DNA of 64,000 nt, taken from assembly GCA_014297435.1 (NCBI GenBank), contig JACOQA010000003.1:96001-160000 (forward strand). The letters are read 5' to 3'. This document shows, one piece after another, positions 19,872 to 54,512 of this stretch. How positions within the stretch are numbered: position 1 is the first letter of the stretch; every line of letters starts with the position of its first letter. The stretch is from Candidatus Nanohaloarchaea archaeon (GTDB lineage: Archaea > Nanohalarchaeota > Nanosalinia > Nanosalinales > Nanosalinaceae). Below the pieces are notes generated by a model, which did no database searches, had not been told where the DNA came from, and saw only the letters and a list, made by a program, of their open reading frames with translations. Position numbers and translations under genes: made by a program.

Positions 19872-19910
19872 CCGCCCCTGTATAAAAAGGTTAACTTCAA
19901 CTTCTGCCAC

Positions 19911-20333: not shown

Positions 20334-20339
20334 TATAAT

Positions 20340-23380: not shown

Positions 23381-23521
23381 ACTCCCTCCCACATTTTTCT
23401 TTTCCAGATAAATATCTAAGTCTAGCTTTTTGAGCACAATTATCTTCTATTTAGGTCTAGTTAGTCGAACCCACTCGAGAGCAAGCAGGTTTTTATAACC
23501 TTTACATGACAACATAAGAGC

Positions 23522-23857
23522 ATGACGGACGACCACGATTATCTACTTGAGGCCGAAGAAGCCCTGAGAAGAACAGGATACCTCGAAGGAGTCTACCTAC
23601 AGGGACCGGAAGTGACACTAACAGCTGCCAACGTAGAAGAGGCGCTGGAAAAAACCGGAGAACAGGACGAGAACATAGACATTATGTTGAAATGTGACAG
23701 GAACTACAGCGGAGATACAGGCGTCTGGGTATACGAGGACGATGATGGAAACGGTCTTGGAGTGGAGGCGCTACCACCCCTACCCGAGGGAGCTGAGGAA
23801 GTAGACAAGGTCAGAGAAACGCTCGAAGACTGGGGAATAGAAATCGATTACAAGTAA
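23522..23857 (+). CDS. Hypothetical acidic protein
   Basis: 111-aa ORF; TTTATAA ~25 bp upstream. Confidence 0.7.
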   Translation: MTDDHDYLLEAEEALRRTGYLEGVYLQGPEVTLTAANVEEALEKTGEQDENIDIMLKCDRNYSGDTGVWVYEDDDGNGLGVEALPPLPEGAEEVDKVRETLEDWGIEIDYK

Positions 23858-24085
23858 TCGATCCCAAACCCAAAAAGAGCGAAAAACTAAAATTCCGAGA
23901 TCGACCCGGTTTAGGAGAGCGATCTTGACGAGCATCACCCCTCCGTTTATGGTGTCAAAAAAATATTCCGGGATAGAGCTGAACCATAATATTAGTTTTA
24001 ACAGTCAGAGGACTACTCCCCTATGTGAACTCTTTTCTTGACTACCTGAAACCTGACCGAGGAAAACCTTCTTTTAACACTAGTA

Positions 24086-26014: not shown

Positions 26015-26086
26015 TAAGTTACGAGAAACCTTTCATCGTCGAGAGCTTAAACACCATTTATAAGATTTAACTCGTGAAGAATTGGT

Positions 26087-26395
26087 ATGAAGAGAGCACG
26101 TGTAAAGCTCAGGAGCACAAGCCAGGACAAGATAGATGAACTGGCGGATGAAATCATAGAGATCGGAGAAGAATACGAGGCAGAAATCTCAGGACCAGTA
26201 CCACTACCAACGCAGACACTGAGAATTCCAACAAGGAAAGCTCCTGACGGAGAAGGTTCCGAAACTATTGAGCGCTACGAGATGCACGTCCACAACAGAC
26301 TTATCGATATTAAGGAGTCTGAGAGAGCGTTGAGACAGGTAATGCGTGTCCACGTTCCTGAAGGCGTCGACATCGAGATCGAGCTTGAAGAGTAG
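26087..26395 (+). CDS. rps10: 30S ribosomal protein uS10
   Basis: GPVPLPT, RKAPDGEG, HNRLIDI. Confidence 0.97.
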   Translation: MKRARVKLRSTSQDKIDELADEIIEIGEEYEAEISGPVPLPTQTLRIPTRKAPDGEGSETIERYEMHVHNRLIDIKESERALRQVMRVHVPEGVDIEIELEE

Positions 26396-26492
26396 ATTCT
26401 CAATAATATTTCTTTCTAACTCATTTCTAGTTTAATTGCTAGCTGTGGTCAAACCACAGAGATATTTAAAAATTACCATTTCCAAGTAACAA

Positions 26493-27224
26493 ATGTTAGG
26501 TGGTAAAATGGAAAATAATGGCAAAAATAAAGCAGCCAGAGCTTTACTTGACATAAAAACCAGTGTTGCAGCAAAAACTGAAGGACATGTCGACAGACTT
26601 CAAACAGCAATAGCTCCGGACACGGAAGACAGAAGTATTGACTACAAAATTGAAGACAGAGAAGATCTAACAGTTTACAGAGGACCTAAATCAGTAACCG
26701 TCATGGAGGCATTAGACGCCGATCATTACTCATCAGGCGAACAGTTTGATACAGATCTCAAGCCAATTTCTGAGGACGACATTGAGATCATCGAACAGGA
26801 GACTTATCAAGAGCATAAAAAGTTAGATCCAGAGGAAGTTCTCGAAGCAGAAGAGAAGATTTACACCCAAAAAGCCAGTAGAGACGATGATAAACTCCTA
26901 GAACCGGATGCCAAATACCCTCATGATGATAAACTAGTATGGGACGTGTCTAGTGATGTTAGCAATTCCGTAACAGGGATCTACAACTCCATAGACGAGG
27001 CAGAACTTGAACTCGAATTTACCAAGGACATAACTGATGTAGAATTAGAAAAGGTACAGATCTTGGCAGAAAACATCCACAACCAGGACGATACATCAAC
27101 CTCCCTTCAAGACACTGTCGACTACTCAAAGTTTAAGTCCGAAGATACTTACGACAGGCTTCCAGAAGACATTGAGACCGGGATAGAATTAGATACGGAT
27201 TATTCGGACAGATTTGAGCTATAG
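26493..27224 (+). CDS. Hypothetical acidic protein
   Basis: 243-aa ORF; ATG 26508 has a GGTGG SD and may be the start. Confidence 0.65.
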   Translation: MLGGKMENNGKNKAARALLDIKTSVAAKTEGHVDRLQTAIAPDTEDRSIDYKIEDREDLTVYRGPKSVTVMEALDADHYSSGEQFDTDLKPISEDDIEIIEQETYQEHKKLDPEEVLEAEEKIYTQKASRDDDKLLEPDAKYPHDDKLVWDVSSDVSNSVTGIYNSIDEAELELEFTKDITDVELEKVQILAENIHNQDDTSTSLQDTVDYSKFKSEDTYDRLPEDIETGIELDTDYSDRFEL

Positions 27225-27374
27225 AATGTCACCAGGGGAGGTTTCCCCTTCCCTCTCTAAATATCGAGAAGGTTTCCAACCTAATTTAAAGTTTCTACCA
27301 GCTTCTAATTTTAGACGGTTCAACAGAGCGCTTCCTATTCCGGAAGGGCTTGACTGATTAAACTCGAGTTTGTT

Positions 27375-27460
27375 GCCGAGGTGACTGAGTGGCTAAAGGT
27401 GCCACCCTGGAAAGGTGGTGAGCGTTACAGCTCTCCTGGGTTCAAATCCCAGCCTCGGCG
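27375..27460 (+). tRNA. tRNA-Ser (GGA), provirus integration target
   Basis: GCCGAGG/CCTCGGC acceptor stem, CCACC-CT-GGA-AA-GGTGG arm, long variable arm, G73. Confidence 0.95.
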
Positions 27461-27461
27461 T
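27448..27461 (+). repeat. attL core
   Basis: CCCAGCCTCGGCGT, identical to 36653-36666. Confidence 0.9.
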
Positions 27462-27561
27462 TTTTCAGCCGTTTCAGGCTCTAACGCCCGGTTTTAGTTC
27501 TCAACTTCTTCAAAATCCTAAAACTTCTCTAAACACTTCAATTCTTACTTAAGGGGTTTCT

Positions 27562-27789
27562 TTGATGCCTAAGACAGATAGAGATGTTTATATGGAAGAT
27601 AGGGGACGTAAAGGTAAGCAAGATCGTCTTGATAGTTATGCGGATAGTCTAAAAGAATCCGAAGAGGAAAACTTGGATTTAGAAGAAGAACCAACTTTAG
27701 AAGAATCACTTAGTCCTGAAGAGCAACAGGCATTTCTTAAAATGGGCGAGAACGCCAAGAAACTGATTAAAGGTGATACGGATGCCTGA
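27562..27789 (+). CDS. Proviral hypothetical protein (75 aa)
   Basis: First ORF of a tightly coupled early gene run. Confidence 0.65.
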   Translation: MMPKTDRDVYMEDRGRKGKQDRLDSYADSLKESEEENLDLEEEPTLEESLSPEEQQAFLKMGENAKKLIKGDTDA

Positions 27790-27934
27790 GTGTCCATATT
27801 GTGGTGAAGAATTTGAGTCAGAACATAAAGAAGGCGTTCATAGATCGAAAGAGCATGTGAATGAGGATAATATTACTCGCAAAAAGCAAACAGCGAGCAA
27901 AGGCGTATTTTACAAGAACAGCAACGGTGAATAG
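27782..27934 (+). CDS. Proviral C2H2 zinc-finger protein (50 aa, absent from the ORF track)
   Basis: MPECPYCGEEFESEHKEGVHRSKEH: C-x2-C-x3-F-x8-H-x4-H; AGGTGA SD upstream. Confidence 0.75.
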   Translation: MPECPYCGEEFESEHKEGVHRSKEHVNEDNITRKKQTASKGVFYKNSNGE

Positions 27935-27935
27935 C

Positions 27936-28253
27936 ATGAAAGAACAAGAAGACAATCTAGAACAGCTTTTTATCAACGAAAAACCCTACAAAATGATTAT
28001 AAAACTGCTTAGAAACCGTCTAAAGGACGATTTATGTAAACATGATCTTTCTAAGGCGGTTGATTCCACTTATTCACACACAGTTAAAGTGGTTGATCGT
28101 TTTGAAGAACTAGAACTTATCGAAACCAAAAAAGAGGGTAGAAAAATGGTTATTACCCTAACATCAAAGGGTGTTGAGGTTGCTAAGGCTCTCGAAAACC
28201 TGGAATCTGTAAAAACAAAAAAGCTGGATTTAGAAGGAGTTGAATCTGCATGA
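27936..28253 (+). CDS. Proviral winged-helix (MarR/ArsR-like) transcriptional regulator
   Basis: DLSKAVDSTYSHTVKVVDRFEELELIETKKEGR..ITLTSKG; ATG 27936 follows the previous stop. Confidence 0.8.
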   Translation: MKEQEDNLEQLFINEKPYKMIIKLLRNRLKDDLCKHDLSKAVDSTYSHTVKVVDRFEELELIETKKEGRKMVITLTSKGVEVAKALENLESVKTKKLDLEGVESA

Positions 28254-28363
28254 AAAAGGATTCAATCGCTCAACGTATCTATAACGATTGTAGAAGAAGT
28301 GGATTAGGACATAGCCATTCAATCCGTATAGTTAAAAGCCGTATTGGAGGTATTAAGCAGTAA
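28250..28363 (+). CDS. Proviral 37-aa basic protein
   Basis: ATGA overlap with the wHTH stop, GGAG SD; MKKDSIAQRIYNDCRRSGLGHSHSIRIVKSRIGGIKQ. Confidence 0.5.
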   Translation: MKKDSIAQRIYNDCRRSGLGHSHSIRIVKSRIGGIKQ

Positions 28364-28527
28364 TGTCTGGTTTCTACCGAACCTGTTATTTATGCGGTGC
28401 AGAGATTGACCAAAAGAAAAATTCTAAGCGTTTTGAAATAGAAGGGGAACCTTCTGGAATTCTTTATGGTCATAAACATGAAGTAGAGCGGAAAATCCGG
28501 AGAAACGATAAATATGTAGAGGTTTAG
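28363..28527 (+). CDS. Proviral 54-aa CxxC protein
   Basis: TAATG overlap, GGAGGT SD; MSGFYRTCYLCGAEI...GHKH. Confidence 0.55.
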   Translation: MSGFYRTCYLCGAEIDQKKNSKRFEIEGEPSGILYGHKHEVERKIRRNDKYVEV

Positions 28528-28531
28528 GAAC

Positions 28532-28975
28532 ATGGAAGAGGTTTCTAGCCTTAAAAGTCCTGAAGCTAGAATTGAATCTCTTGAAAAAGCTGTTAGGCAT
28601 TTGAAGGATAAAGTCAGAGAGTTAGAAGAACAAAAAGCCGATTTAAGCGATAGAGTACAGTTTCTTGAAAACAAAGAAGGAAAAAATCAGCCTAACAGAA
28701 AGTTTAAAGTTTCTAAAAGAATTACTAACGACAAAGGAGAATTAGAAAGAGATTTTTATGATGAAAGAGCTAAAAATGTCGCTAAAGAAGTTATGAAGCG
28801 TGGCAAAGCGAGAAGCGGCGAATTTGATAAAATACTCAGAGAACATGATGTCGACGTAAGTAACCCAACTAAATTGAATATAATGCGAAGATATGGCAAA
28901 GCCTTTGATTTTTTCAAGTTTAAAGGGCAGAAAAAAGGCGTTAGAAAGGAATCAGCTTTAATCCATACCCCTTAG
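28532..28975 (+). CDS. Proviral coiled-coil plus basic (possible wHTH) DNA-binding protein
   Basis: N-terminal leucine-zipper-like heptads, basic C-terminal domain; directly precedes the repeat-rich region. Confidence 0.65.
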   Translation: MEEVSSLKSPEARIESLEKAVRHLKDKVRELEEQKADLSDRVQFLENKEGKNQPNRKFKVSKRITNDKGELERDFYDERAKNVAKEVMKRGKARSGEFDKILREHDVDVSNPTKLNIMRRYGKAFDFFKFKGQKKGVRKESALIHTP

Positions 28976-29006
28976 AACCCTATTTAGCTCATTATTTTTA
29001 GGTCGA

Positions 29007-29336
29007 AAAAACCTTAATTTTACACGTTTCTGAAAGAAAGGCATAGCCGGAAGTTTAAGGTTTTTGCGATATTGAAAACCTTAAACTATGTAGCTGGCTG
29101 GTTCTTCTTGTAAAATTCGGTTTTGTCTAGAAGTGTGAAAAAGCGGATTTAATGTTTAAGGTTTTCTAAAATATAACACCATTATATAACACTGTTATAC
29201 TTTAGAAGTACACTTACAGACTCTTAACGTTAATTTTTTGGCGTAATGACTAAACAGTAAAAAACAGCGTTAAAGCCTAAAACCTTAATCTTCGGGGGGT
29301 TGGGGTCTCTAAGAAACGTGTAAAATTAAGGTTTTT
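29007..29336. repeat. 25-bp perfect inverted repeat enclosing alternating AAAACCTTAA boxes (candidate origin/control region)
   Basis: AAAAACCTTAATTTTACACGTTTCT at 29007-29031 and its reverse complement at 29312-29336; six AAAACCTTAA copies. Confidence 0.85.
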
Positions 29337-29347
29337 AGCACGGACTT

Positions 29348-29368
29348 AATTATAACGCCGTTATAATT
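29348..29368. promoter_or_regulatory. Palindromic operator upstream of the structural operon
   Basis: AATTATAAC-GCC-GTTATAATT; related sites at 29172-29186, 29185-29199 and 36480-36494. Confidence 0.65.
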
Positions 29369-29379
29369 TAGGACTAACT

Positions 29380-29814
29380 ATGAAACTATCAAACTTAACT
29401 CCCGGAAATTCGGACAGCTCCGGGGCGTTACTCGATTCCGGTGGTCGGGTCGCTGGTTCAATATTTCTTTTAGCGACTATGGCTCTTTTTGGCGGATTCG
29501 AACACGTCACGGGGTATTTAACTAGCGAGGCTTTTACTGTAGCCGGAGTTACCATGCTTTGGGCAGAAGTGGCGGTTATAGCGACTTCACTCTACGCGGT
29601 TGCTAACGCACAGACGACAAAGACAGGTATAAGCACGGCAGGAGCAACTTTACTTGTTTCAAGCGTGGCTTTTGTCTTTTCGAGCGGCTTGACTTCTTGG
29701 GTTAGTGGTTCTGCATCCAAGAGTCTTTTAATAACGGCTATTACGGCAGTAATCTATATAGCAACTATTGAAGGACGAGAGATAGGAGGTGCTGTGAAAA
29801 ATGTCACGAACTAA
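29380..29814 (+). CDS. Proviral multi-TM membrane protein (pleolipovirus VP3-like internal membrane protein)
   Basis: 144 aa, ~4 hydrophobic segments, first gene of the structural block. Confidence 0.65.
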   Translation: MKLSNLTPGNSDSSGALLDSGGRVAGSIFLLATMALFGGFEHVTGYLTSEAFTVAGVTMLWAEVAVIATSLYAVANAQTTKTGISTAGATLLVSSVAFVFSSGLTSWVSGSASKSLLITAITAVIYIATIEGREIGGAVKNVTN

Positions 29815-30826
29815 ACTGATCTTCGGCTCACTTGCCGTCCTAAGCCTCATAGGAATGGTTTCGACATCAACCGCCTACCTTTCAGCAACCGACAGCGGAT
29901 ACGACACCAGCAACTACATAACGATCACAGAACCGATCAACAAGACCACAGTTTTCTACGGCGATCTAGAACAAGGAGAAAGCGACACAATAAGTTTTGA
30001 AGCAACTGTAGACCTTCAAGCAATCGCAAACGACAAAGGCTACAATTCCCCAAGCGACTTGCATGTTGGAGCCGTAGTAGCCAACGGATTCGGAGACAAC
30101 CAAACAACCGCAAGCCTAGACAGCTACGGAACCATAAACAGAAACCTAACAAACGGAACGATGACAGTAACCGGTCAAATGCCACTTTACAACCTTAAAG
30201 ACCAGTTAGGAGACGCATTATGGAGCGAAGGCTACGGCTTCACAATATCGGCATTCAACGCCACGGACGGCTTCACAGAAGCCGACCTCACAAAGCTTGA
30301 AGCACGACATTCACACGCCTTCAAACTTGAAAGAGCACAAGACACACTCTTACAAGCAAACACCACAGAATCATGGAATTCAGCGGTCGAGACAACCACA
30401 GACTTCAAGTTTGAGAACGATTCAGCGAAAGCAACAAGCAAAAACGCATCACTACAGTTTAATGAAGTTCCAGCACAGATTTACGAAAGCCTAGAGATCG
30501 AAGTAAGCAAACAGGACGCCAACTCGAACGTAGACGCACAGATCGAATACCTCAACACCGGAAACAGCCGGACGGAAGCACTTAGTGACGGGTTGAACAC
30601 AATCGACCCGAATGTTCCGGACAACACGGAAGAGGTAAGAATCAGCATAGAAACCGACTCAGAGAACGTATCAATCGACTCTGTCAATCTATACGGCAGA
30701 TTCGACAATCTACAACTTACGCCTATAGGAGCTATAGGCGGTTCGGAGATCCCGATCATTTCAGATCTGTTGAACGGTCTGGAAAATCTGTTTAACGCGG
30801 TCTTGGAGTGGATTCCTTTCGTATGA
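29801..30826 (+). CDS. Proviral exported glycoprotein (second spike/receptor-binding candidate)
   Basis: Signal peptide, S/T/N/D-rich ectodomain with many N-x-S/T sequons, hydrophobic/amphipathic C-terminus. Confidence 0.65.
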   Translation: MSRTKLIFGSLAVLSLIGMVSTSTAYLSATDSGYDTSNYITITEPINKTTVFYGDLEQGESDTISFEATVDLQAIANDKGYNSPSDLHVGAVVANGFGDNQTTASLDSYGTINRNLTNGTMTVTGQMPLYNLKDQLGDALWSEGYGFTISAFNATDGFTEADLTKLEARHSHAFKLERAQDTLLQANTTESWNSAVETTTDFKFENDSAKATSKNASLQFNEVPAQIYESLEIEVSKQDANSNVDAQIEYLNTGNSRTEALSDGLNTIDPNVPDNTEEVRISIETDSENVSIDSVNLYGRFDNLQLTPIGAIGGSEIPIISDLLNGLENLFNAVLEWIPFV

Positions 30827-32307
30827 AGCGAAAGGTCGCCACTCTGACCCTAATTTCTCTTATCCTCATCAGCACCGCATCAGCCTTAGCTTTATCTTCT
30901 GTTGCCGTAGCCTCAGGTATTGGAGTTTGTGCTATTGATGCAGTTGCCGGAGACGGATGTTTCGGATTCGGCGGAGACGGAGAAATTGACGGAGCAACAC
31001 CAGACGAAGTTAAAAACAGCATATACGGCAACGGAGTATTTAGGGAAGATCAAAGACAACGCATGGTTACGCAGGTTTCTAGCTATGCGAATCAGAGCTA
31101 CGGAGTTTCGATGGGTCAAGCCAAAATGTACGGCATAGAAGCCCACAACAACGGTTCAGCGAAATCTGTAGCCTATAACAAGATCCAGAGCGAGGTAAAC
31201 GACTTTTACGCAACATATCAGCTTTCACTTATCAGAGACAGAAACACCGAAGCCCTCAAGTTCAACGAATCACTTAACACGATCCAAGCAACGAATGAAC
31301 TCAGCACAGAAGATGTTTTCAGAGTCAAAGCATCCTCTGACAGCCACTCAGGAAACGTCCATAATGCCGAGATCGTCGAGGAATCGGTAACTCTAGTCAA
31401 CGGATCAGAAATTAAAAGTTATCAAGTAAACGTAAGTTTCACAGATGGTTATACAGATAGTGAGATTGTTGAAGAGGTCTACACAGAACTAGGCAAGTTT
31501 AAGAGCGACCTATCCGATCCCGAAGCAGTCATCGGCAAGGACAGCGATGGCGATACTGCAAGATTTCTTGATAACAGCGATTACAGCGAAGCATGGAACG
31601 AAATTAACGGACATCGCCAAAGAGCGATTGACAACGTGAACAACGTCATCGACAAGGTTTACAGCCAGTACGACCCCGGAGAAATCGATTTGAAGGACAC
31701 GATGACCCCACTAGAACTCTTACAGACAGCATCAACCAACTACGAGGACACGGGCTATTACGGCTATGCGTCCCTTTCGTTGGAGTACATGGGTCTTTCA
31801 AGCAACGAAAGCTATGCGTTCAACGTGACATGGAACAACCAAGGTGTAGACGAGAAAACCGGGCACGGACAGTTATTTGTCAACAAGGACGACTTTAGCA
31901 ACGGTCTCGAAGTTGACACGACTTATGACGCATCGAATCGACCGGCTTGGTTCGTCCACAGCAACGACAACGGAAAAGCCCAAACAACACGCCTCAACGG
32001 CACTTTCACAATCAACGAAATGACAGACACGGAAACAGGCGAAACTGTGAACAGTACAGGCGTACAAAGCACAAAGTTAGTGACGACAAACACGACCAAG
32101 CTTGAAGAACAGCTTTCAGAACTACGAGAGGACATGAAAGACCTTCAAGGCGGCGGAATCACCCCAGTTGTCGATGGATTCACGGACTGGGTTTCTGGCG
32201 TGTTCGGAAGCCTAAAGAAAGGAATTGGAGCATTAGTTATCGTCCTTGCCGGTCTAGCGGCTTTAAGCTCCGGCGTTGGAAGAAACTCGGGAGGAGGCGA
32301 TAACTAG
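30823..32307 (+). CDS. Proviral spike/fusion protein (pleolipovirus VP4-like)
   Basis: ~494 aa, signal peptide followed by a hydrophobic Gly/Ala segment, coiled coil then C-terminal TM; position in the block. Confidence 0.7.
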   Translation: MKRKVATLTLISLILISTASALALSSVAVASGIGVCAIDAVAGDGCFGFGGDGEIDGATPDEVKNSIYGNGVFREDQRQRMVTQVSSYANQSYGVSMGQAKMYGIEAHNNGSAKSVAYNKIQSEVNDFYATYQLSLIRDRNTEALKFNESLNTIQATNELSTEDVFRVKASSDSHSGNVHNAEIVEESVTLVNGSEIKSYQVNVSFTDGYTDSEIVEEVYTELGKFKSDLSDPEAVIGKDSDGDTARFLDNSDYSEAWNEINGHRQRAIDNVNNVIDKVYSQYDPGEIDLKDTMTPLELLQTASTNYEDTGYYGYASLSLEYMGLSSNESYAFNVTWNNQGVDEKTGHGQLFVNKDDFSNGLEVDTTYDASNRPAWFVHSNDNGKAQTTRLNGTFTINEMTDTETGETVNSTGVQSTKLVTTNTTKLEEQLSELREDMKDLQGGGITPVVDGFTDWVSGVFGSLKKGIGALVIVLAGLAALSSGVGRNSGGGDN

Positions 32308-32309
32308 AA

Positions 32310-32825
32310 ATGAAGGTGAAAAAACCCGCCTTCATGCTTCTCTTCTTTATTGCTCTTATATCTGGAGGACTAGCCCAGTCTTCAAACTCCTCTTCTTCTT
32401 TTGAAGACTCTTCAATTATCAGTATTGATGAAACAACAAAGATTGTAAACACGACATGGGGTTCTAACGGAGTTAAAATTGTTTTCGATTCCGAAATACC
32501 TAAACTAATCAGTATTACAGATGTTAATAGTATTTCAAGTACTGGAGCGTCGACAGTAAACTTTAAGCGTACTAGATTATCGCCCGGAATGACTACAGTA
32601 CGGATGGATTTAACTATGAAAAGAGGTGACATGAAGGCTATAATAGGATCAGGTAAAACTTTTGTATCAATTTCAAATCCTTCTAAGCCGTTACTTTCCA
32701 ATATAACACGATTAGACTTTTATTTGGAGGGCTTGATGGTTGCCGTCTTTACATCGCTACAAGTAGTTTGGAGGCATAAATGGTACTATTACCGGCTTAA
32801 AAAGGGGCTTAACAGGGTGATTTAA
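32310..32825 (+). CDS. Proviral membrane protein (position of pleolipovirus ORF6/VP8-like)
   Basis: Signal peptide, beta-rich body, C-terminal TM with basic tail. Confidence 0.6.
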   Translation: MKVKKPAFMLLFFIALISGGLAQSSNSSSSFEDSSIISIDETTKIVNTTWGSNGVKIVFDSEIPKLISITDVNSISSTGASTVNFKRTRLSPGMTTVRMDLTMKRGDMKAIIGSGKTFVSISNPSKPLLSNITRLDFYLEGLMVAVFTSLQVVWRHKWYYYRLKKGLNRVI

Positions 32826-32830
32826 CTAAA

Positions 32831-33664
32831 ATGGTTTCAATAACTCCAAGCAAAACAGTTAAGCGTAAAAACCCGGACAATAACCGTGAAAAAGTTCATA
32901 AATTTGTTATGGAACATCGAGCGGTTTCCGGGTTTACTATAGCCGGGGTTGTAGCTCTGTTTTTCTTTAAAATAATTCCCTTGCCGTTTATCGGCTTGAT
33001 ACCATCAGGAATTTATAAGATCGGCGTTATGGCAGTAATTGCAAACGTATTAGCTTTTTATCCGTCTAAAAAGATTTTTCAATTCATGAAAACCGACCCA
33101 GTAGACTGGATATTGGAGTTATATATCAATCCGGAGAATGAGAAAACTATAAAGGGTTACACATACTTTAAAGGACGATTTGAGGAAGAATACACTTTTA
33201 AGGAAGGAAGCCCAATTAAAGAGACTAGTAAAAGAGGTAAAGATGTTTATATAGTGAATAATATTGATAAGGAAAATAAAGAGGTTGTAGCTCCAGAACT
33301 TGGAGAATACAACGACATAGAATTTTTATCCAAAGTCGAAACGATTGAAGCCAACCGCTTGAGAAATAGAAAATTAGCAAAAGCCGGAGGAAAGGCTTTA
33401 AGGCGTTTAAGAACCATAGCCGACCGAATGAAAGCCAAGCATTACAATAGAAACCAAAAAAAGGATATAGAAATGGTCGAAGCTGATCCAGAAATGATTC
33501 TGGATGAGGTCGAAGCTGAAATTCCCGAGCTTCTCGGGGATTCGGACGAGGACGAGGACGACACAAGTATTCAAAAAATTTTAAGAGAAGTTGAGAGTCC
33601 ACAAGATGAGTATAACGCCAGTTTAGAGTTCTCGACTGGCTCCGGTGGTGAATCTGATGAGTGA
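32831..33664 (+). CDS. Proviral membrane protein (position of pleolipovirus ORF7-like)
   Basis: Two N-terminal TMs, soluble domain, coiled coil and acidic tail; precedes the NTPase. Confidence 0.6.
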   Translation: MVSITPSKTVKRKNPDNNREKVHKFVMEHRAVSGFTIAGVVALFFFKIIPLPFIGLIPSGIYKIGVMAVIANVLAFYPSKKIFQFMKTDPVDWILELYINPENEKTIKGYTYFKGRFEEEYTFKEGSPIKETSKRGKDVYIVNNIDKENKEVVAPELGEYNDIEFLSKVETIEANRLRNRKLAKAGGKALRRLRTIADRMKAKHYNRNQKKDIEMVEADPEMILDEVEAEIPELLGDSDEDEDDTSIQKILREVESPQDEYNASLEFSTGSGGESDE

Positions 33665-34736
33665 CGTGCTTAGTGGGGATAAGTTGGAAGAACATAAAGT
33701 CTTGATTTCACGGATTCTGCGAGAGGTTCTTAAATCCGACAATAACGACTTGTACGCCTATGAGAATGCCGGGCTTCTAGATCCTGAAGCTCTTGAATAT
33801 CTTTCAAAGTTTGAAAGGTACAACGATTCGGATTATACCAAAGACGAGCGTTACCGTACAGTATTAAAGAGAAACACAAGTAAAAACATTAATGAGGCGA
33901 TTCGAGAGGGCGACATCCATCGCATGGCTCATGCGATTGGGTTAAGCACGGGAGACAAGAAAACGGATTACAGAAAAATTGAGGATGACTTTAAACCGTT
34001 TATAGCCCAAGAAGGTAAAATATACTATATCTCCGGCAACCCTAACAGCGGTAAAACCAATCTCGCGTTGTTTATGGCTGAGTTATGGCGTGAAGAGGTT
34101 GGTGGCGATGTCGCAAGTAATATTTCAAGTGTTAAGGCGTTTAGAACTGTGGAAAGCTTTAAAGAACTTAAAAGCTTCTTTGAAGAACCCGGCGAGAAAT
34201 TCTTTATTGCGGATGACTTTTCAAACCATGCCTCCGGTTATTCTGGCGATAGACAAAAATTTGAACAAAAAATTCGGAAGACGACAAACTTCATAGCCAA
34301 ATACAAGGCTTCTCTAGCCTTCATCGGTCATACAGGAATGGATTTACATGCGGATGCTCGGAGAAAAGCCAGATTTTTGGATAAAAAGAATAAAACGCAT
34401 GTAGATGTATTTAAAGGCGTTAAGAACGGTCAAGGCACGAATAAGAAAATGACCCTTGAATCAATTCCAGAGACTAAACATGGTTATGACCCATATGAGA
34501 AGACTAAATGGGATTGGAACATCGAAGAGGATGGCACGGACGAGAAAGAGATAAGAAAAGAGATTAACGAACGAATCAAAAAACTAGCTCTTCAGAAAAA
34601 CACGATTAAGAGAAGTGACGACCTTGGCGAGTATAAAACACGTTTGGCAAAGCTTGAGATGCGGGATTTTGCCGAAGACTCAAGCGACTGGCGTTTTAAA
34701 ACAAGCCCTCAAAGACTCGAAAAACGCCGTATATAA
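33645..34736 (+). CDS. Proviral P-loop NTPase (pleolipovirus ORF8-like)
   Basis: Walker A GNPNSGKT, Walker B FFIADD; ATG 33657 may be the true start. Confidence 0.8.
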   Translation: MVNLMSDVLSGDKLEEHKVLISRILREVLKSDNNDLYAYENAGLLDPEALEYLSKFERYNDSDYTKDERYRTVLKRNTSKNINEAIREGDIHRMAHAIGLSTGDKKTDYRKIEDDFKPFIAQEGKIYYISGNPNSGKTNLALFMAELWREEVGGDVASNISSVKAFRTVESFKELKSFFEEPGEKFFIADDFSNHASGYSGDRQKFEQKIRKTTNFIAKYKASLAFIGHTGMDLHADARRKARFLDKKNKTHVDVFKGVKNGQGTNKKMTLESIPETKHGYDPYEKTKWDWNIEEDGTDEKEIRKEINERIKKLALQKNTIKRSDDLGEYKTRLAKLEMRDFAEDSSDWRFKTSPQRLEKRRI

Positions 34737-35208
34737 TAAAGGACATATATCTTCGAGCAGATTCTTTATAAAGAATAAGATCTAGATCCTGCCGATAGGT
34801 TTTATACATCCTTTATTCTAGAGTTTTCAGATATCGCAAGATATAACGGCTTTTTCAAAATTTCATAGATGACTCACTCGAACCGGTCAAATCGGCATTT
34901 TTCAGGCTTTGACTATACGTTTTATAGGCATCTCACAAAGGCAAATGTGAAAGTTGGTACATCTCTGGCGTTTAACCATGCCCAATCTAAAAAATGATTT
35001 GTAAGGTCTATATATCGGACATAGAAGCTCCGAGATTCGAGATATAGATTAGAAGATTCAAATTCTTTGAACTTCCCGCAATATCTCATACCAGGAGGGT
35101 TAATCAGGGTCAAAAAATTGAGTATATCAGGATTCCCCGAATGAGCAAAGCAATTATGTCCGAAAGCTGTTTAAATATCCGTGAATATTTCGGTTCAGGG
35201 CGATAACT

Positions 35209-35436
35209 GTGGGAAAAAGGGTTGATATTCCGGTCAAGGACATAGAAGAAGAGTTTAAAAACGTCAGAGAGTTTATTGAAACCGAATACCCGGGTCGTGA
35301 AAGCTATGGAAAGCGTTTTATAGGTAAGAAAGCTTTTAGCATCGCATCAAAGCAGGTTGACGACTGGAAACATGAAACAAAAGACATAAAGGACGACTGG
35401 CATAGCTTAAAGAAAGAAATAGAAGATACAATTTAA
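35209..35436 (+). CDS. Proviral small hypothetical protein
   Basis: 75-aa ORF convergent with the integrase; TTTAAAT upstream. Confidence 0.55.
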   Translation: MGKRVDIPVKDIEEEFKNVREFIETEYPGRESYGKRFIGKKAFSIASKQVDDWKHETKDIKDDWHSLKKEIEDTI

Positions 35437-36407
35437 GCTTTTATTTCTTCTTCTTGAGACCATAGCTTATTCATAGCCTCGTCTAAATCGCTATTAGCCA
35501 TTCTGATGTATTTACGGGCATGTTTAGACCCCTGAACCCAACCAAAAAATTGGCAAATTTGAGGTTGATTAAGACCCTTTTTAGCTAAATATGTCGCTCG
35601 TCCTTTCCTAAAAGCATGGAAGTTTGTTTTACATTCAATACCGCCAGACCGGTCTAAAATATCTTCCATTTGGTTTCTCATACCTTGATAGGTTATAATA
35701 TCATTCTTATTTAGTTTAGTAAAAATATAACTGTCTCTGGACGCGTTAGGATGTTCTTTTTGCCATTTCTTTAGATGCTTGACCGATTCTTTAACAGGAA
35801 CTTTTCTCTTAATTGTTTTTGAGTTAGTAAAGCGGATTTTATGACCTTTTTCAACACTTTGGAGGTCTTTCCATTTAATATGAAGAACCTCAGAGATTCT
35901 ACCCCCAGTTTCCCACAAAACAGAGATAAACGCTTTATCCCTAGGATTAACAGCGTGTTCTTGTAGCTTCTTTACTTGCTCAGGGCATGGTAATTCGTCT
36001 GGATCGGTAAAGGATTGCTCATTTTTCTTTACCATGACTGTAACAAAATCTGTTATCTCAGGGTTTTGTGTGCCTTTATGCCAACTATAGAACTTTTTAA
36101 TTGCTTTTTTATACTCTGCTAGGGTGTGAGGCGAGTAATCCTTTTTATTTATTCTATCTTGGTTGATCTTGCCAACTAAACTTATTATATCCGATCTCTC
36201 AGCTTCTTTAAGTTCAAAGTCTACAATACTCTCCAACGTGTTGAAAGTGGTCATATAACGGCAAATTCTGGATGTACTGAGCCCCTGAGCCATTAAATAG
36301 TCTTTAAAATCCAATATCGCTTCTTTATTAGACCTAGAGTAATTTCCATCTTTGATATTTTGTACCTGACCATTTAGGTCGGAATTTCGATTGTATATTT
36401 CGGACAT
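35433..36407 (-). CDS. int: Tyrosine recombinase/integrase
   Basis: ETGGRISE (R), NSKT (K), HAFRK (H-x-x-R), FGW..GS, KYI (Y); next to attR. Confidence 0.95.
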   Translation of the reverse strand: MSEIYNRNSDLNGQVQNIKDGNYSRSNKEAILDFKDYLMAQGLSTSRICRYMTTFNTLESIVDFELKEAERSDIISLVGKINQDRINKKDYSPHTLAEYKKAIKKFYSWHKGTQNPEITDFVTVMVKKNEQSFTDPDELPCPEQVKKLQEHAVNPRDKAFISVLWETGGRISEVLHIKWKDLQSVEKGHKIRFTNSKTIKRKVPVKESVKHLKKWQKEHPNASRDSYIFTKLNKNDIITYQGMRNQMEDILDRSGGIECKTNFHAFRKGRATYLAKKGLNQPQICQFFGWVQGSKHARKYIRMANSDLDEAMNKLWSQEEEIKA

Positions 36408-36479
36408 ATGTATACCATACCCGATATATTAACTTTTTTATAACCTTTGTTACCTTTAGGTAAAAACACTTATTTCGTC

Positions 36480-36494
36480 AATAACGGCGTTATA
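36480..36494. promoter_or_regulatory. Operator copy upstream of the integrase
   Basis: AATAACGGCGTTATA; its reverse complement matches the 29351-29365 site at 14/15. Confidence 0.6.
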
Positions 36495-36652
36495 CTACGG
36501 TTGTAATATAAAAATCAGGTCAAAAAGTATGTATAGGAGAAAAATGCCTAGGCGGTGTTGTCGCACCCCTAGGCGGCTATTATGGCGTATATGGTGAATA
36601 ACCTATGAATGGATATACAACTCAAAACTTAAAAAACCGACAGGGTTTAACG

Positions 36653-36666
36653 CCCAGCCTCGGCGT
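36653..36666 (+). repeat. attR core
   Basis: CCCAGCCTCGGCGT duplicate of the tRNA-Ser 3' end. Confidence 0.9.
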
Positions 36667-36704: not shown

Positions 36705-37040
36705 CTAATCAGCCAGATATCTATCTAGTTCTGATAATGTAGTCTCAGCAAATTCGACAGCTGCCACACGGTCATTTTCTGTGCTCATAACGGTCATACA
36801 TGGCTCACCAAAACAGTTGATTATAGCAGGCAAATCATTATTCTCTGCAAAATGTTCAAGCTCTCCGACAATAAGATTCCTGGATTCAGGAAAACTTTAC
36901 TCTATAGATTGATGCTCTTCAAAACTACTACCATAGTTCGTGAAGACCTTTAATTCAACATATTCTCCTGAGTTATCAAGCCACGTATCGCTCTCGTAGT
37001 GAGCTACTTTTTCACGTCCATACTCTAAACCCACAACCAC
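36705..37040 (-). pseudogene. Acidic hypothetical gene interrupted by an in-frame TAA
   Basis: 112-codon frame GTG..TAG with one stop at 36897-36899; host-like acidic translation on both sides. Confidence 0.55.
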
Positions 37041-37067
37041 ATATTAACAGCTAAAGTATAAACCGTT

Positions 37068-37286
37068 ATGGCAGGATCACCGCCTTCAAAGATAGAACTG
37101 GAGGAAGCGAAAGTCTACATACACAAGAAGGATGAGAGCTCAGGATCTCAGAACATCCACATAGATGTAGAGTACCCTAAGTTGAACGAGATTATAGAGT
37201 CGGGAGAAAATACGTTTGTAGGCGGAAAGAACGGAGGAGTCTTTATTGTTTTGAAAGATGAAATGATCGAGAGAGCTAGAATTTAG
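37068..37286 (+). CDS. Small hypothetical protein
   Basis: 72-aa ORF. Confidence 0.6.
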   Translation: MAGSPPSKIELEEAKVYIHKKDESSGSQNIHIDVEYPKLNEIIESGENTFVGGKNGGVFIVLKDEMIERARI

Positions 37287-37299
37287 TCGAGAAAAGAGA

Positions 37300-37611
37300 T
37301 CAGAAACCGTCCAGAGCTTCAAGAAGGTTTTCCGCGACCTTGACTGCTTCAAACTCTTCTTCTATCTCAAGAACCGTGTAAGCTTTCTCTTCTTCCTGGT
37401 AGAATTCAGCGACTTCCTGTCTTTCAATTGCTTCGGAAGCATCTTCCTCAAAACCGTATCTAAGTATATGGAAAGAATCCTCCATATCGATGTAGAAGAG
37501 GCTTACCTCGGTTTCACCGAACTTCTCCGTTTCAACCTTCTTATCGTGGTAAGACGGGATAGATTCATCCAATTCAACAATCTTGTAAATGTCTTCAGAT
37601 TCTACCGACAC
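37300..37611 (-). CDS. Hypothetical acidic protein
   Basis: 103-aa ORF. Confidence 0.6.
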   Translation of the reverse strand: MSVESEDIYKIVELDESIPSYHDKKVETEKFGETEVSLFYIDMEDSFHILRYGFEEDASEAIERQEVAEFYQEEEKAYTVLEIEEEFEAVKVAENLLEALDGF

Positions 37612-37663
37612 ACGAAAATTCCTATAGGTTAAGTGTTAAAACTGCTTTCGGTAAAAAATCTTT

Positions 37664-38245
37664 ATGGAGAGCTTTATCGACGAGTTCAAGGACGATAGAG
37701 AGAAAAACTCGGACATTATCATAGCGATCGATGGAATGGCCGCAGCAGGGAAAGGAACTGTCGCCAGATTTATCGCTGACAAACTTAATATTGAACATTT
37801 TTCGGCGAGCGATGTATTCTACCAGGTTGCCGATGAGAGAAACCTTGAGGATCATGAGCTTTCCGAAGAGGCCGAAAAAGAACTAGACCTTGAAATAGAT
37901 AGAAGAACTCTTGAACGGGCTTTGGAACAGGATTGTATTGTCGAAGGTCGGATTCCTTGTTATGCGGTCGGAAGCTTTGCAGACCTGAAGATAAAGATTA
38001 AAGCAGATCCTAGTGAAAGAGCGAGAAGGCTTGCAGGACGCGAAGATATCGAGATCGAGGAATCAGAGAAAATTGTTGAGAAACGTGACAGGGAGGACTC
38101 AAGACGTTACAAAGAATACTACGGGATCAACACTTCCGATACCGAGATATACGATATCGTTATTGACAACACCGATCTTTCCATAAACAAGCAGAACAAG
38201 TTAGTACTTGAAGAACTGGAAAAACTGTTTCCAGAAAAGGTGTAA
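37664..38245 (+). CDS. cmk: Cytidylate kinase (archaeal type)
   Basis: GMAAAGKGT P-loop, VEGR, RARR...RE, RYKEYYGI..D..IYD. Confidence 0.92.
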   Translation: MESFIDEFKDDREKNSDIIIAIDGMAAAGKGTVARFIADKLNIEHFSASDVFYQVADERNLEDHELSEEAEKELDLEIDRRTLERALEQDCIVEGRIPCYAVGSFADLKIKIKADPSERARRLAGREDIEIEESEKIVEKRDREDSRRYKEYYGINTSDTEIYDIVIDNTDLSINKQNKLVLEELEKLFPEKV

Positions 38246-38249
38246 GCAA

Positions 38250-38669
38250 ATGGGTTACAAGATACTTGGACATACGGCAGACGAGAAGTTTCATGCAGAA
38301 GGAGAAACAGTTGAAGAAGCTTTTTCCGAATCAGTGAAGGCTGTCGCCGAAATTGTTGGAGCTGATCCTGGAGCCGGCGAAAACCATCATAATGTAGAGA
38401 TTGAGTCCGAGTCTTACGAAGCTTTATTCTTCGACTTCCTCGACAAGATAATTTTTCTACAGGATACAGAGAACCAGGTTGTCACACACGCCGAGAACCT
38501 GAAAGTTGAAAAAATCGGGAATATTTACTTGCTTGAAGCGAAGCTGAATACTGACCCTATAGTTGAAGGCTCAGGATTCCTTGATCTTAAGGCTCCGACT
38601 TACAACGAGATGAAGGTTGACTACGAAGACGGCACAGGCTGGATCTTAGAGGCAGTTCTTGATATCTAG
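38250..38669 (+). CDS. Archease (RtcB cofactor)
   Basis: HTAD, KAPTY, C-terminal VLDI. Confidence 0.93.
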   Translation: MGYKILGHTADEKFHAEGETVEEAFSESVKAVAEIVGADPGAGENHHNVEIESESYEALFFDFLDKIIFLQDTENQVVTHAENLKVEKIGNIYLLEAKLNTDPIVEGSGFLDLKAPTYNEMKVDYEDGTGWILEAVLDI

Positions 38670-39355
38670 ACATAGTCATTCCTGTCAATTTTATAGACGG
38701 TCTCGTTGACCTTCTTGAACTGTTCGTTATCATCTTTCTCCATCCTGCGGGAAAGATTGTTCTTTCCTCTCTTCTTCACAATCTGTTCTTCCAGATTGTC
38801 TGCAATAACGTACTCCGTTCTTTCACTAAATTCATCAAATATTTCACCAAGCTCCGCGCGGTCATGCTCTCGTTCAAGTTTCGCTACCACATACTCCAGC
38901 ACCTGATTCTCCTCTTCAATAGAGGGAAGGCTTTCTGTGTCACATTTTACGTAGTTCCAGTCAGATAGGTTAGAACCTGAAACGTCCCACTTGTTTCCAA
39001 AAGCCGAGTTCTCAACCAACGTAATATCCTTGGATACATACTCTTGTAGTTCGTTTGCTAATTCAAAGATCCTAGAAACGCTATTTTGGGGAATGCTATC
39101 TGGAATGTTGTGGCGCTCAAACTTGGAGGATTCGAACGTGCTCTTCTTATAGCACGTCTCATCGCCCTTCTGAACCAATACGTTGTTCTCGAGACCTCTA
39201 TAGATACTGTCTATATATCTTCGGAAGTCCCGGACAGCTTGATGGCTATTCCCTATAGTGCCTCGTTTTCCTCCTTCCTCATACAGCTCTATTTCGCCTT
39301 CTAAAACCAAGTTGAAGAACTCAGATATCTCATTCTCTGACTCCAGTACGCTCAT
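38666..39355 (-). CDS. Hypothetical protein between archease and rtcB
   Basis: 229-aa ORF; possible C-terminal winged helix. Confidence 0.6.
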   Translation of the reverse strand: MSVLESENEISEFFNLVLEGEIELYEEGGKRGTIGNSHQAVRDFRRYIDSIYRGLENNVLVQKGDETCYKKSTFESSKFERHNIPDSIPQNSVSRIFELANELQEYVSKDITLVENSAFGNKWDVSGSNLSDWNYVKCDTESLPSIEEENQVLEYVVAKLEREHDRAELGEIFDEFSERTEYVIADNLEEQIVKKRGKNNLSRRMEKDDNEQFKKVNETVYKIDRNDYV

Positions 39356-40996: not shown

Positions 40997-41020
40997 CTAT
41001 GGAAACAAGGTGTAGAACAA

Positions 41021-41992: not shown

Positions 41993-42759
41993 AAATAGAT
42001 ATGACAGACACACCAACACAGTTTAACGAAAGAGTAAGACCCGACATAATCAAGAGGGCGTTCCTCTCAATCCAGTCAAAGAACCGGCAGGACTACGGAA
42101 CAGATCCGGAAGCCGGACTGAAACACGTTACAAGGATCAAACAGAGGAACAACGCATTCAGAGGACAGAAAGGAAAAGGAATGTCCCGAACACCGAAGAA
42201 AGCCATGCTCGCCAGAGGACAGCAGTTCTACTGGGTCGGAGCAAAGGCGCCTCACACAAAAGGAGGTAGAGTAGCCCACGGACCTAAAGCCGAGAAAGAC
42301 TTCGAAGAAGAGATCAACGACAAGGAAAGAAGAAAGGCAATCAGGTCAGCTATCGCAGCTTCAAACGATATCGAGCTAGTCTCCAAGAAACATGATTACG
42401 ACGGAGAACTACCGCTTATCGAGGAAGGACTGAACGAAGTAGAGAAGACACAGGAACTGAAGGAAAGACTCGAGGATCTTGGACTCGAAGATGAACTAGA
42501 AAGAGCTTCGGAGAAGAAGGTTCGAGCAGGTAGAGGAACTTCAAGAGGAAGAAAGTACAGGACGAAGACAGGACCTCTAGTTGTTTACGCAGAAGATGAA
42601 GGAATTGTTAACGCAGCAAGCAACCTTCAGGGAGTTGACTCCTCAAGAGTCGACCAGTTAAACGCAAAGAAACTTGCACCAGGCGCACAGCCAGGAAGAC
42701 TTGTTGTCTGGACAGAAAAAGCTGTAGAAGAACTAAAAGAAAAAGAGCTTTACAGGTGA
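41989..42759 (+). CDS. rpl4: 50S ribosomal protein uL4
   Basis: VRPDIIKRA, GGRVAHGP, LAPG. Confidence 0.96.
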   Translation: MKIDMTDTPTQFNERVRPDIIKRAFLSIQSKNRQDYGTDPEAGLKHVTRIKQRNNAFRGQKGKGMSRTPKKAMLARGQQFYWVGAKAPHTKGGRVAHGPKAEKDFEEEINDKERRKAIRSAIAASNDIELVSKKHDYDGELPLIEEGLNEVEKTQELKERLEDLGLEDELERASEKKVRAGRGTSRGRKYRTKTGPLVVYAEDEGIVNAASNLQGVDSSRVDQLNAKKLAPGAQPGRLVVWTEKAVEELKEKELYR

Positions 42760-43034: not shown

Positions 43035-43050
43035 GAGAGGTGAACAAGAT

Positions 43051-43755: not shown

Positions 43756-43767
43756 AGGCCTAGAACT

Positions 43768-54509: not shown

Positions 54510-54512
54510 AAA

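Follow-up and report, generated by a model that had tools for sequence, protein, structure and literature searches.

A probable provirus of the pleomorphic archaeal virus type at a tRNA-Ser gene of a nanohaloarchaeon

The element and its insertion site

The window analyzed here, 64,000 nt of nanohaloarchaeal DNA (contig JACOQA010000003.1, positions 96,001-160,000; contig C9 of the source genome, G000), contains a 9.2-kb element that starts at the 3' end of a tRNA-Ser(GGA) gene and carries an integrase gene together with a block of genes resembling those with which pleomorphic archaeal viruses build their envelopes. The original prediction, made by reading the letters of the window, was of an apparently complete pleolipovirus-like provirus in this tRNA gene. 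That description holds, as the element is bounded by attachment (att) sites, its integrase is intact, and the genes of the block are open. The features that carry this reading, in window coordinates and with protein lengths in amino acids (aa), are as follows.

27374-27461, + strand: tRNA-Ser(GGA) gene, called by ARAGORN and by Rfam RF00005 (53.9 bits); identical to the copy in genome G001
27448-27461, + strand: attL core CCCAGCCTCGGCGT, the last 14 nt of the tRNA-Ser(GGA) gene
29380-29814, + strand: multi-pass membrane protein, 144 aa, in the VP3 position, assigned from position, size and hydrophobic segments
29801-30826, + strand: exported acidic beta-rich protein of an orphan family, 341 aa, with an N-terminal hydrophobic segment and 49 acidic to 17 basic residues
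30808-32307, + strand: VP4/VP5-like membrane fusion (spike) protein, 499 aa, with a signal-like N-terminus and a C-terminal anchor
32310-32825, + strand: homologue of HRPV-1 ORF6, 171 aa (phrog_1938, E 8e-18)
32831-33664, + strand: homologue of HRPV-1 ORF7, 277 aa, assigned by profile comparison; one strong hydrophobic segment at residues 39-57
33645-34736, + strand: VP8-like AAA+/P-loop NTPase, 363 aa, assigned from phrog_1979 (E 2e-54), a Walker A motif and a tree
35433-36407, - strand: intact XerA-like tyrosine integrase, 324 aa (PF00589, E 5e-20; phrog_1, E 5e-29)
36653-36666, + strand: attR core CCCAGCCTCGGCGT, an exact copy of the attL core

The exact 14-bp duplication of the tRNA-Ser 3' end is as predicted: the two cores, at 27448-27461 and 36653-36666, are identical at 14 of 14 positions. 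Similarity extends further, to 21 of 24 nt, when 27438-27461 is compared with 36643-36666, and the 10 nt ahead of the attR core (36643-36652) correspond to the tRNA T-arm in a diverged copy carried by the virus. Both strands of the entire 998,768-bp genome hold only two copies of CCCAGCCTCGGCGT, namely attL and attR, against expectations of 1.4e-5 per 20 kb on one strand and 0.0014 per genome on both strands. As a control, the 20 kb downstream was shuffled 300 times by mononucleotide, and two of the shuffled sequences contained a 14-nt stretch from somewhere in the tRNA. Because chance can produce such a recurrence, we place the weight on the fact that the repeat ends exactly at the tRNA 3' end and brackets the integrase. 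The 9,191 bp between the cores (27462-36652) have a G+C content (GC) of 0.405, and the 10-kb flanks have values of 0.465 and 0.455. The whole is embedded in a 207-kb contig whose host flanks are syntenic on both sides with G001, a genome of the same genus.

The same tRNA gene in G001 shows what the site looks like without the element. The left flank of the G001 site corresponds to window positions 26051-27461 with 90% identity and ends at 27461, while the right flank corresponds to 36724-38670 with 75% identity; both lie on one contig with a gap of 587 bp, and this interval contains a Nudix-like open reading frame (ORF) and no provirus genes. A "CC" follows the core both in G001 and at attR, whereas the attL core is followed by a different, viral sequence. 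Judging from the coordinates of the matches, the tRNA and right-flank genes are also neighbors in G013, G010, G012 and G006. The 9.2 kb is an insertion that is absent from the same tRNA in the same-genus genome. The original prediction had named the occurrence of this region without att boundaries in related genomes as evidence that would count against it; the region is instead missing at the G001 tRNA-Ser.

The Nudix-like gene of G001 (locus L015, 833-1438; contig G001:C11) lies directly after tRNA-Ser and encodes about 170 aa with a zinc-ribbon-like N-terminus, the Nudix label being our reading of its sequence. The 3' flank of tRNA-Ser is thus variable even without a provirus, because this gene is present in G001 and missing in G000.

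The morphogenetic module and the integrase

A spike of about 494 aa with a C-terminal transmembrane segment had been proposed from the reading of the window. The frame is present and encodes 499 aa from a GTG at 30808 or 494 aa from an ATG at 30823, the latter being the length of database entry P0001. Hydrophobic segments were found at the N-terminus and at residues 462-480 (Kyte-Doolittle scale, window 19, threshold 1.6). The protein matched phrog_2231 (E 6e-71), and PF26255 is a precomputed family annotation on its database entry. When the spike was compared by tblastn with 50,697 phage and archaeal-virus records, all 27 matching records were VP4, VP1 or spike genes from pleolipoviruses or Archaeoglobus pleomorphic (pro)viruses. 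It also matched, by sequence, the solved VP5 fusogens of HRPV-2 and HRPV-6 (6qgi, E 6e-16; 6j7v, 4e-7; 6qgl, 2.5e-6). An AlphaFold model built from a four-sequence alignment is of low confidence (mean predicted local distance difference test score [pLDDT], 51.1), and a Foldseek search of the PDB with this model returned VP5 for the top four matches (E 1.3e-13 to 1e-5), the next match having an E value of 0.056. The structural comparison with VP4/VP5 that had been suggested as a check agrees with the sequence comparison. On these similarities, the 499-aa protein is a homologue of the pleolipovirus fusogen VP4/VP5.

The NTPase gives the same picture. Its tblastn matches comprised 35 virus records, all from pleolipoviruses (as read from 30 rows and a tally of the first words of the organism names), so that, among these records, the proposed pleolipovirus-like Walker-A NTPase matches pleolipovirus NTPases only. 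The Walker A motif GNPNSGKT is invariant in six aligned NTPases (G131, P133, G136, K137 and T138). The alternative raised in the original prediction, that the spike or the NTPase might instead belong to conjugation or type IV secretion systems, did not materialize: scans of the element proteins against Pfam, PHROG and NCBIfam gave no match to such families.

The two genes between spike and NTPase could also be assigned. In blastp against a 38-protein database, the 171-aa protein aligned with SNJ2 gp14 (E 2.6e-6), HGPV-1 ORF5 (6e-5) and HRPV-1 ORF6 (0.08), and the 277-aa protein aligned by hhalign with a profile of HRPV-1 ORF7, SNJ2 gp15 and HGPV-1 ORF6 (probability 95.7%, E 9.8e-9). The co-oriented block of 144, 341, about 494, 171 and 277 aa plus the NTPase thus exists as listed in the prediction. 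Its order is that of HRPV-1, VP3-VP4-ORF6-ORF7-VP8, with the 341-aa gene in addition, and it is also the order on contig C41 of genome G004, where genes of 157, 274, 518 (spike), 180 and 279 aa are followed by a cut NTPase gene. None of the module genes contains a stop codon, and all six, like the integrase gene, are of full length compared with their homologues.

The 144-aa protein had been described as having four transmembrane segments. Two of these pass the hydrophobicity threshold and stand; the other two (at approximately 24-40 and 86-103) fall below it and are weaker segments visible by eye. Its positional analogues have 148 aa in genome G011 and 157 aa in G004. Matrix proteins of pleomorphic archaeal viruses are described in a taxonomy paper on the group as highly divergent (PMC13595969).

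The 341-aa protein was correctly predicted to be exported, in that the frame is present and an N-terminal hydrophobic segment was found. It belongs to a small family, with 11 proteins at an E value of 0.001 or less among 1.84 billion representatives, and in all three loci seen (the window and loci L024 and L025, the last two in G004 and G011) its gene is flanked by the matrix gene on one side and the fusogen gene on the other. The protein had no match in Pfam, PHROG or NCBIfam. Its AlphaFold model has a mean pLDDT of 45.7 and is confident for residues 220-300, approximately, alone; the structure atlas gave zero feature hits for it and structural neighbors with template modeling (TM) scores of 0.39 or less. 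We regard it as a candidate for a second envelope or receptor-binding protein. At L025 (contig G011:C105), a gene for an 827-aa GmrSD-type restriction endonuclease (3269-5752; PF03235, E 4e-26; PF07510, 5e-14) adjoins the matrix-like gene and could belong either to the host, as a defense gene bordering the insertion, or to the element, as cargo.

An intact tyrosine integrase had been claimed, and the frame at 35433-36407 is open with the catalytic residues kept. R170, H264, R267 and Y300, together with the W/H position, are invariant between this protein and two paralogues in the same genome; these residues correspond to the catalytic set R..H-x-x-R..W/H..Y of tyrosine recombinases. Against the XerA-like model NF040815 the integrase scored 89.8 bits (E 2e-25), which is below the cut-off of 220 bits. 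Among viral integrases, those of ThalV2 and Geoglobus acetivorans pleomorphic virus 1 were the closest relatives, the alignments covering 92-96% of the query at 32-33% identity (E 1e-37 and 2e-38). The original prediction named SNJ2-like members as a precedent, and SNJ2 also integrates into a tRNA gene. The integrase itself is not SNJ2-like: it aligned with that of SNJ2 at an E value of only 0.39, the SNJ2 accessory proteins Orf2 and Orf3 had no match, and the resemblance is to integrases of Archaeoglobi pleomorphic viruses. By sequence kinship, the integrase is of a lineage shared with Archaeoglobi pleomorphic viruses and not with SNJ2.

The two paralogues in G000, with 35% and 31% identity, mark loci of their own. 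The first (C9:166196-167515) is downstream of tRNA-Gln(CTG) at C9:162549-162623, in a region 2.5-7.5 kb past the right end of the window, and a 22-nt stretch from the 5' end of this tRNA is repeated at C9:165211. The second (C8:247489-248700) is close to the end of contig C8, at a distance of 133 bp from tRNA-Arg(GCG). Both loci are probably further integrated elements.

Placement, replication and alternative readings

No protein of the kinds by which the genera of pleolipoviruses replicate was found in the element. We scanned 18 ORFs of at least 50 aa (10 main frames and 8 small or antisense frames) and found no replication protein (Rep), primase, helicase, polB or Orc1 family among them. A blastp comparison with the HUH Rep of HRPV-1 (ORF1) gave the 277-aa protein as its sole alignment (E 0.36), and a local blastp comparison of the element proteins with the Orc1/Cdc6 protein of SNJ2 gave nothing significant. 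For the Rep of the beta type (SNJ2 gp19 and HGPV-1 ORF14; "Rep-Arvir" in PMC13595969), the best blastp alignment covered 42 residues with an E value of 0.051, and outside the structural block there is no ORF long enough to encode such a protein. The remaining non-coding gaps measure about 100, 405, 473 and 245 bp and hence leave no room for a hidden Rep gene. The statement that no HUH or rolling-circle Rep and no polB is visible is borne out by the family scans and, for the Rep, by blastp; the unusual replication module proposed in their place is a guess. As no replication protein is encoded, replication is most likely performed by host factors, which is also what the taxonomy paper suggests for pleomorphic viruses lacking a Rep (PMC13595969). 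The att-bounded insertion implies a circular form, unlike the linear, protein-primed polB genomes of Gammapleolipovirus.

Elements of this kind have been described recently, and our comparison with them draws on portions of the papers concerned. Zhou et al. (bioRxiv 10.1101/2025.02.15.638363) reported a nanohaloarchaeal pleomorphic virus, DNPV-1 (9.1 kb), and a provirus in a nanohaloarchaeal genome, ANPV-1, neither with detectable replication proteins, and proposed the family Nanopleoviridae. In the portions of later work that treat classification, this family is placed in the phylum Saleviricota of the realm Pleomoviria (J Virol 2026, PMC13595969), a realm defined by the morphogenetic module, and is one of three current families of pleomorphic archaeal viruses (PMC13631441). 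The novelty implied by the original prediction is therefore lost, since nanohaloarchaeal pleomorphic viruses, including a provirus, that lack detectable replication proteins have already been published. The window element shares with DNPV-1 and ANPV-1, as those portions describe them, a nanohaloarchaeal host, a size of approximately 9 kb (9.2 kb here), homologues of VP4, the AAA+ ATPase, ORF6 and ORF7 and the lack of a detectable replication protein, and it has a 144-aa protein in the position of the VP3 homologue that they carry; like ANPV-1, it is integrated in a nanohaloarchaeal chromosome. This comparison is with the published description and not with the sequences, and the window element may be ANPV-1 itself or a distinct member of Nanopleoviridae. 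The att site, the type of integrase, the 341-aa gene and the intergenic repeats are not given for DNPV-1 or ANPV-1 in those main-text portions of Zhou et al.

Among other systems, SNJ2 (Betapleolipovirus, from Natrinema; NC_074646.1) is likewise temperate, has its integrase at one genome end and carries the block VP12/VP13/gp14/gp15/NTPase, with homology to the window element in the spike (E 6e-4), the ORF6-like protein (2.6e-6) and the NTPase (3e-19). However, it has 17 kb, a GC of 0.59 and a haloarchaeal host, and its Orc1/Cdc6, two recombination accessory proteins, HicAB and a 659-aa protein have no counterparts here. HRPV-1 (Alphapleolipovirus, NC_012558.1) has the gene order VP3-VP4-(ORF5)-ORF6-ORF7-VP8 and similar gene sizes, with matches to VP4 (8e-10), VP8 (5e-14) and, via profile comparison, ORF7. 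It differs in its HUH-type Rep (ORF1, 500 aa), in having no integrase, in its haloarchaeal host and in its GC of 0.54, and its VP3 and VP4 genes are adjacent, whereas the window element has the 341-aa gene at this point. Thalassapleoviridae (ThalV2, BK065158.1; Geoglobus acetivorans pleomorphic virus 1, BK065156.1) have the closest viral integrases, and VP4-like fusogens of Archaeoglobus (pro)viruses match the spike weakly (7e-5 and 2e-4). The NTPase as tblastn query matched no Thalassapleoviridae, which infect hyperthermophiles, have larger genomes (13-18 kb) and, in the portions of PMC13595969 on classification, stand in the phylum Calorviricota rather than Saleviricota; some of them are described there as also having no recognizable replication protein.

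The features by which the pleolipovirus genera are told apart, namely an HUH Rep for Alphapleolipovirus, a replication protein of the SNJ2 gp19/HGPV-1 ORF14 type for Betapleolipovirus and polB with a linear genome for Gammapleolipovirus, are lacking in the element. Those of Nanopleoviridae are present: the host belongs to Nanohaloarchaeota, and the NTPase falls outside the haloarchaeal Pleolipoviridae rows in a tree that contains no type sequences of the family. This maximum likelihood tree had 32 rows, of which 4 were labeled "nano," 15 "halo" and 13 unlabeled, neither DNPV-1 nor ANPV-1 being among them. The window grouped with L038, L039 (from a Ca. Nanohaloarchaea metagenome-assembled genome [MAG]), P0004 and P0005 in a clade with 100/99 support, and one branch (91/93) parted the 4 nano rows from the 15 halo rows; the row for HGPV-1 sits on a very long branch, and its placement is unsure. 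P0004 and P0005 are database proteins and the nearest NTPases found, with 45-47% identity.

Relatives are few. Counting G000 itself, a spike gene was found in 3 of 41 relatives and an NTPase gene in 4 of the 70 genomes searched at phylum level. The protein database held one non-self relative of the spike (P0002, 38%) and three of the NTPase (47, 46 and 29%). IMG/VR gave no relative when searched with the single NTPase and spike proteins and seven distant loci when searched with the NTPase alignment (23-27% identity, mostly known haloarchaeal viruses). A metagenome scan found 29 loci, the best with 31% identity, and in none of the 29 were the left-arm genes or the 341-aa gene detected (tblastn, E 1e-4). 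Short near-exact matches to the provirus (23-28 nt) occur in other nanohaloarchaeal genomes, but no repeat array surrounds them at the three loci checked (L068, L070 and L071), so that a status as CRISPR spacers is unsupported there.

Three of the loci found deserve separate mention. In L040, a 7,163-bp contig of a Ca. Nanohalobium MAG, an integrase homologue lies directly upstream of ORF6-like, ORF7-like and NTPase genes (2324-5797), and tblastn detected neither a spike nor a 341-aa gene; the locus has either a different arrangement or a deletion. L041, a 10,101-bp contig in a Ca. Paceibacteria MAG, has an NTPase with almost the same tree position as that of L040, a match that spans query residues 69-292 alone and an integrase in two pieces; it looks like a mis-binned nanohaloarchaeal element. 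L042, a 7,063-bp contig with a GC of 0.614 in an assembly of Fredinandcohnia salidurans (Bacillaceae), encodes a pleolipovirus-type NTPase with 31% identity to that of the window, which groups with metagenome sequences in the tree, SNJ2-type haloarchaeal rows standing in the same region. L042 probably stems from a haloarchaeal virus and entered the bacterial assembly as contamination.

The host fits this placement. The G000 genome (998,768 bp in 15 contigs, GC 0.44, 99% complete, 1.05% contamination) is akin to nanohaloarchaeal genomes of the same family, which confirms the host named in the prediction, and the 70 genomes of the phylum that were searched are all of 0.5-1.7 Mb. It was also proposed that the cell is a DPANN archaeon dependent on a partner for its lipids. 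For G000 this is supported: PF01884 (GGGP synthase), PF01040 (UbiA, the DGGGP synthase family) and PF01864 (CDP-archaeol synthase), three core archaeal lipid families, had no match in the genome, whereas four of four archaeal control genomes were positive for each. Because these three families are lacking, the envelope lipids would be second-hand, from a haloarchaeon.

Taken together, our results suggest that 27462-36652 plus one 14-bp core very probably represents an archaeal virus of the Nanopleoviridae type, temperate, enveloped and pleomorphic, whose genome is integrated in a nanohaloarchaeal chromosome. Such a virus would integrate when its circular genome recombines, through a tRNA-like attP (24 nt, 21 matching), with the 3' end of the tRNA gene, so that the tRNA is regenerated unchanged. 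Upon induction, the integrase would excise the genome, and particles would bud without lysis and take their lipids from the cell membrane, with the matrix protein inside the envelope and the VP4-like spike, perhaps together with the 341-aa exported protein, outside. Entry would be by membrane fusion driven by the spike. The envelope lipids would come ultimately from the haloarchaeal partner of the nanohaloarchaeon. More tentatively, host replication factors may be recruited to the intergenic region at 29007-29336, possibly through two small winged-helix proteins encoded in the left arm.

Several points weigh against this interpretation. The case is built on genome sequence, from which activity of the provirus can only be predicted. 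Carriers are rare (3 of 41 relatives for the spike and 4 of 70 genomes for the NTPase), and most copies are on short contigs. The match of the spike fold is partly carried by sequence, because the AlphaFold models of the spike and the 341-aa protein are of low confidence (mean pLDDT, 51.1 and 45.7). The "empty" site in G001 is not an exact attB, as it holds the Nudix-like gene that G000 lacks. Assignment of the 144-aa protein as a matrix protein depends on position, size and hydrophobicity, and its hhalign comparison with HRPV-1 VP3, SNJ2 VP12 and HGPV-1 VP2 gave a probability of 5.9%. Finally, the motif AAAACCTTAA, which is repeated in the intergenic region, is absent from 69 of 71 related loci, the two carriers being copies of the window itself, and to read this region as an origin or operator bound by the left-arm DNA-binding proteins is speculative.

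It is also conceivable, though improbable, that the element is a dead or domesticated remnant that integrated in the past, no longer excises or forms particles and persists either because the host benefits, for example through vesicle formation or superinfection exclusion, or because it has yet to decay. The element has no replication gene, and two related loci give the impression of decay or rearrangement: in L040 and L041 an integrase adjoins ORF6, ORF7 and NTPase genes and no spike was found, and L041 has in addition a truncated NTPase and a fragmented integrase. Against this, the six module genes and the integrase gene are open and of full length, and the att cores are identical at 14 of 14 positions. 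The 9.2 kb also match the size of the complete genome of the free virus DNPV-1 (9.1 kb), which is likewise reported, in the portions cited, to have no replication gene.

Far less probable is an integrated plasmid or vesicle-forming element that has borrowed a membrane module of the pleolipovirus type and is not a virus in the strict sense. Haloarchaeal pleolipovirus-like particles and plasmid vesicles are considered related phenomena, and the arms of the element encode small DNA-binding proteins and no virus-specific replication gene. Yet the five-gene morphogenetic block is complete and in canonical order, and the family scans of the element found no plasmid partition, relaxase or conjugation family. 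Elements of the same content are, moreover, classed as viruses in the portions of the literature that describe them (bioRxiv 10.1101/2025.02.15.638363; PMC13595969).

A misjoin of a haloarchaeal pleolipovirus to a nanohaloarchaeal contig during assembly or binning is barely credible: although MAG bins do collect such contigs (as with L041 in the Ca. Paceibacteria MAG and L042 in the Bacillaceae assembly) and GC alone is indecisive, because part of His2 has a GC of 0.406, the element lies within a 207-kb contig with both flanks syntenic with G001, its ends duplicate the host's own tRNA, its GC of 0.405 contrasts with 0.54-0.62 in HRPV-1, SNJ2 and HGPV-1 and with 0.455-0.465 in the flanks, and its NTPase falls among nanohaloarchaeal sequences, apart from the 15 haloarchaeal rows.

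If the element is the provirus that we propose, it confirms the idea, already published and reached here from an independent reading, that membrane-fusing enveloped viruses lysogenize DPANN symbionts unable to make their own lipids. The envelope of such a virus is then necessarily built of lipids first taken from the haloarchaeal host. What is added here is the att site in tRNA-Ser(GGA), the kinship of the integrase with the Archaeoglobi type, a very rare family of exported proteins and a candidate origin or operator region, the last of which makes the question of how pleomorphic viruses without a Rep replicate experimentally approachable.

The left arm, intergenic repeats and other features of the window

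The remaining features of the element are the small genes of its left arm, one small gene beside the integrase gene and a set of repeats in non-coding DNA.

27562-27789, + strand: acidic ORF, 75 aa, with 22 acidic and 12 basic residues; no family at E below 0.01
27861-28253, + strand: winged-helix DNA-binding protein, 130 aa, a candidate regulator (PF13463 HTH_27, E 3e-4, just below the cut-off)
28363-28527, + strand: ORF of 54 aa that may not be a gene
28532-28975, + strand: basic protein, 147 aa, with an N-terminal coiled coil (coiled-coil families below cut-off) and a possible C-terminal winged helix
29007-29336, no strand: intergenic repeat cluster, a candidate origin or operator region, with six copies of AAAACCTTAA, three per strand
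29186-29198, no strand: ATAAC-N3-GTTAT palindrome at the center of the intergenic region
29352-29364, no strand: ATAAC-N3-GTTAT palindrome, operator-like, ending 16 nt before the start of the matrix-protein gene
35209-35436, + strand: ORF of 75 aa, convergent with the integrase gene
36481-36493, no strand: ATAAC-N3-GTTAT palindrome, 74 nt upstream of the integrase start, between the integrase gene and attR

For the 130-aa protein, matches to ArsR/MarR-type NCBIfam models were all below cut-off, and HGPV-1 ORF1 was a weak match (E 0.004 in the 38-protein database). Structural neighbors of the 147-aa protein in the atlas were clusters of winged helix-turn-helix proteins with TM scores of 0.37-0.52, all below the acceptance bar, so that its winged helix is a lead only.

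All six copies of AAAACCTTAA in the window lie in the 405-bp intergenic region ahead of the structural genes, against 0.23 expected, and they make up six of the eight copies in the genome. A 31-nt inverted repeat (29007-29037 and 29306-29336; 94% complementary) brackets the cluster; the inverted repeats listed in support are I1, I4, I7, I10 and I11. We also considered the cluster as a marker of the host origin and rejected this, as the motif clusters nowhere else in the genome. The palindrome ATAAC-N3-GTTAT occurs four times in the window against 0.03 expected, three times in non-coding DNA of the provirus and once outside it. The palindromes ahead of the structural operon and of the integrase gene look like possible operators of a lysogeny switch.

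It is possible, but rather unlikely, that the element has a minimal, non-canonical replication and control module of its own, in which a 330-bp region with six AAAACCTTAA iterons inside the 31-nt inverted repeat and two small winged-helix proteins would recruit the host machinery, and that the 341-aa protein is a lineage-specific second envelope protein that determines attachment to nanohaloarchaeal cells. If this were true, the module would be the first concrete candidate for an origin and initiator in pleomorphic viruses lacking a Rep, which include some Nanopleoviridae, Pleolipoviridae and Thalassapleoviridae.

Outside the element, the window contains a single 5S rRNA gene (51349-51464, - strand; 70.9 bits), which is alone there and fits an unlinked arrangement of rRNA genes. 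Window positions 9001-24000, 41001-46000 and 54001-60000 have a strong positive AT skew on the + strand (0.25-0.46), and ORFs of 485-822 aa lie at 9309-15138 and 21191-23380.

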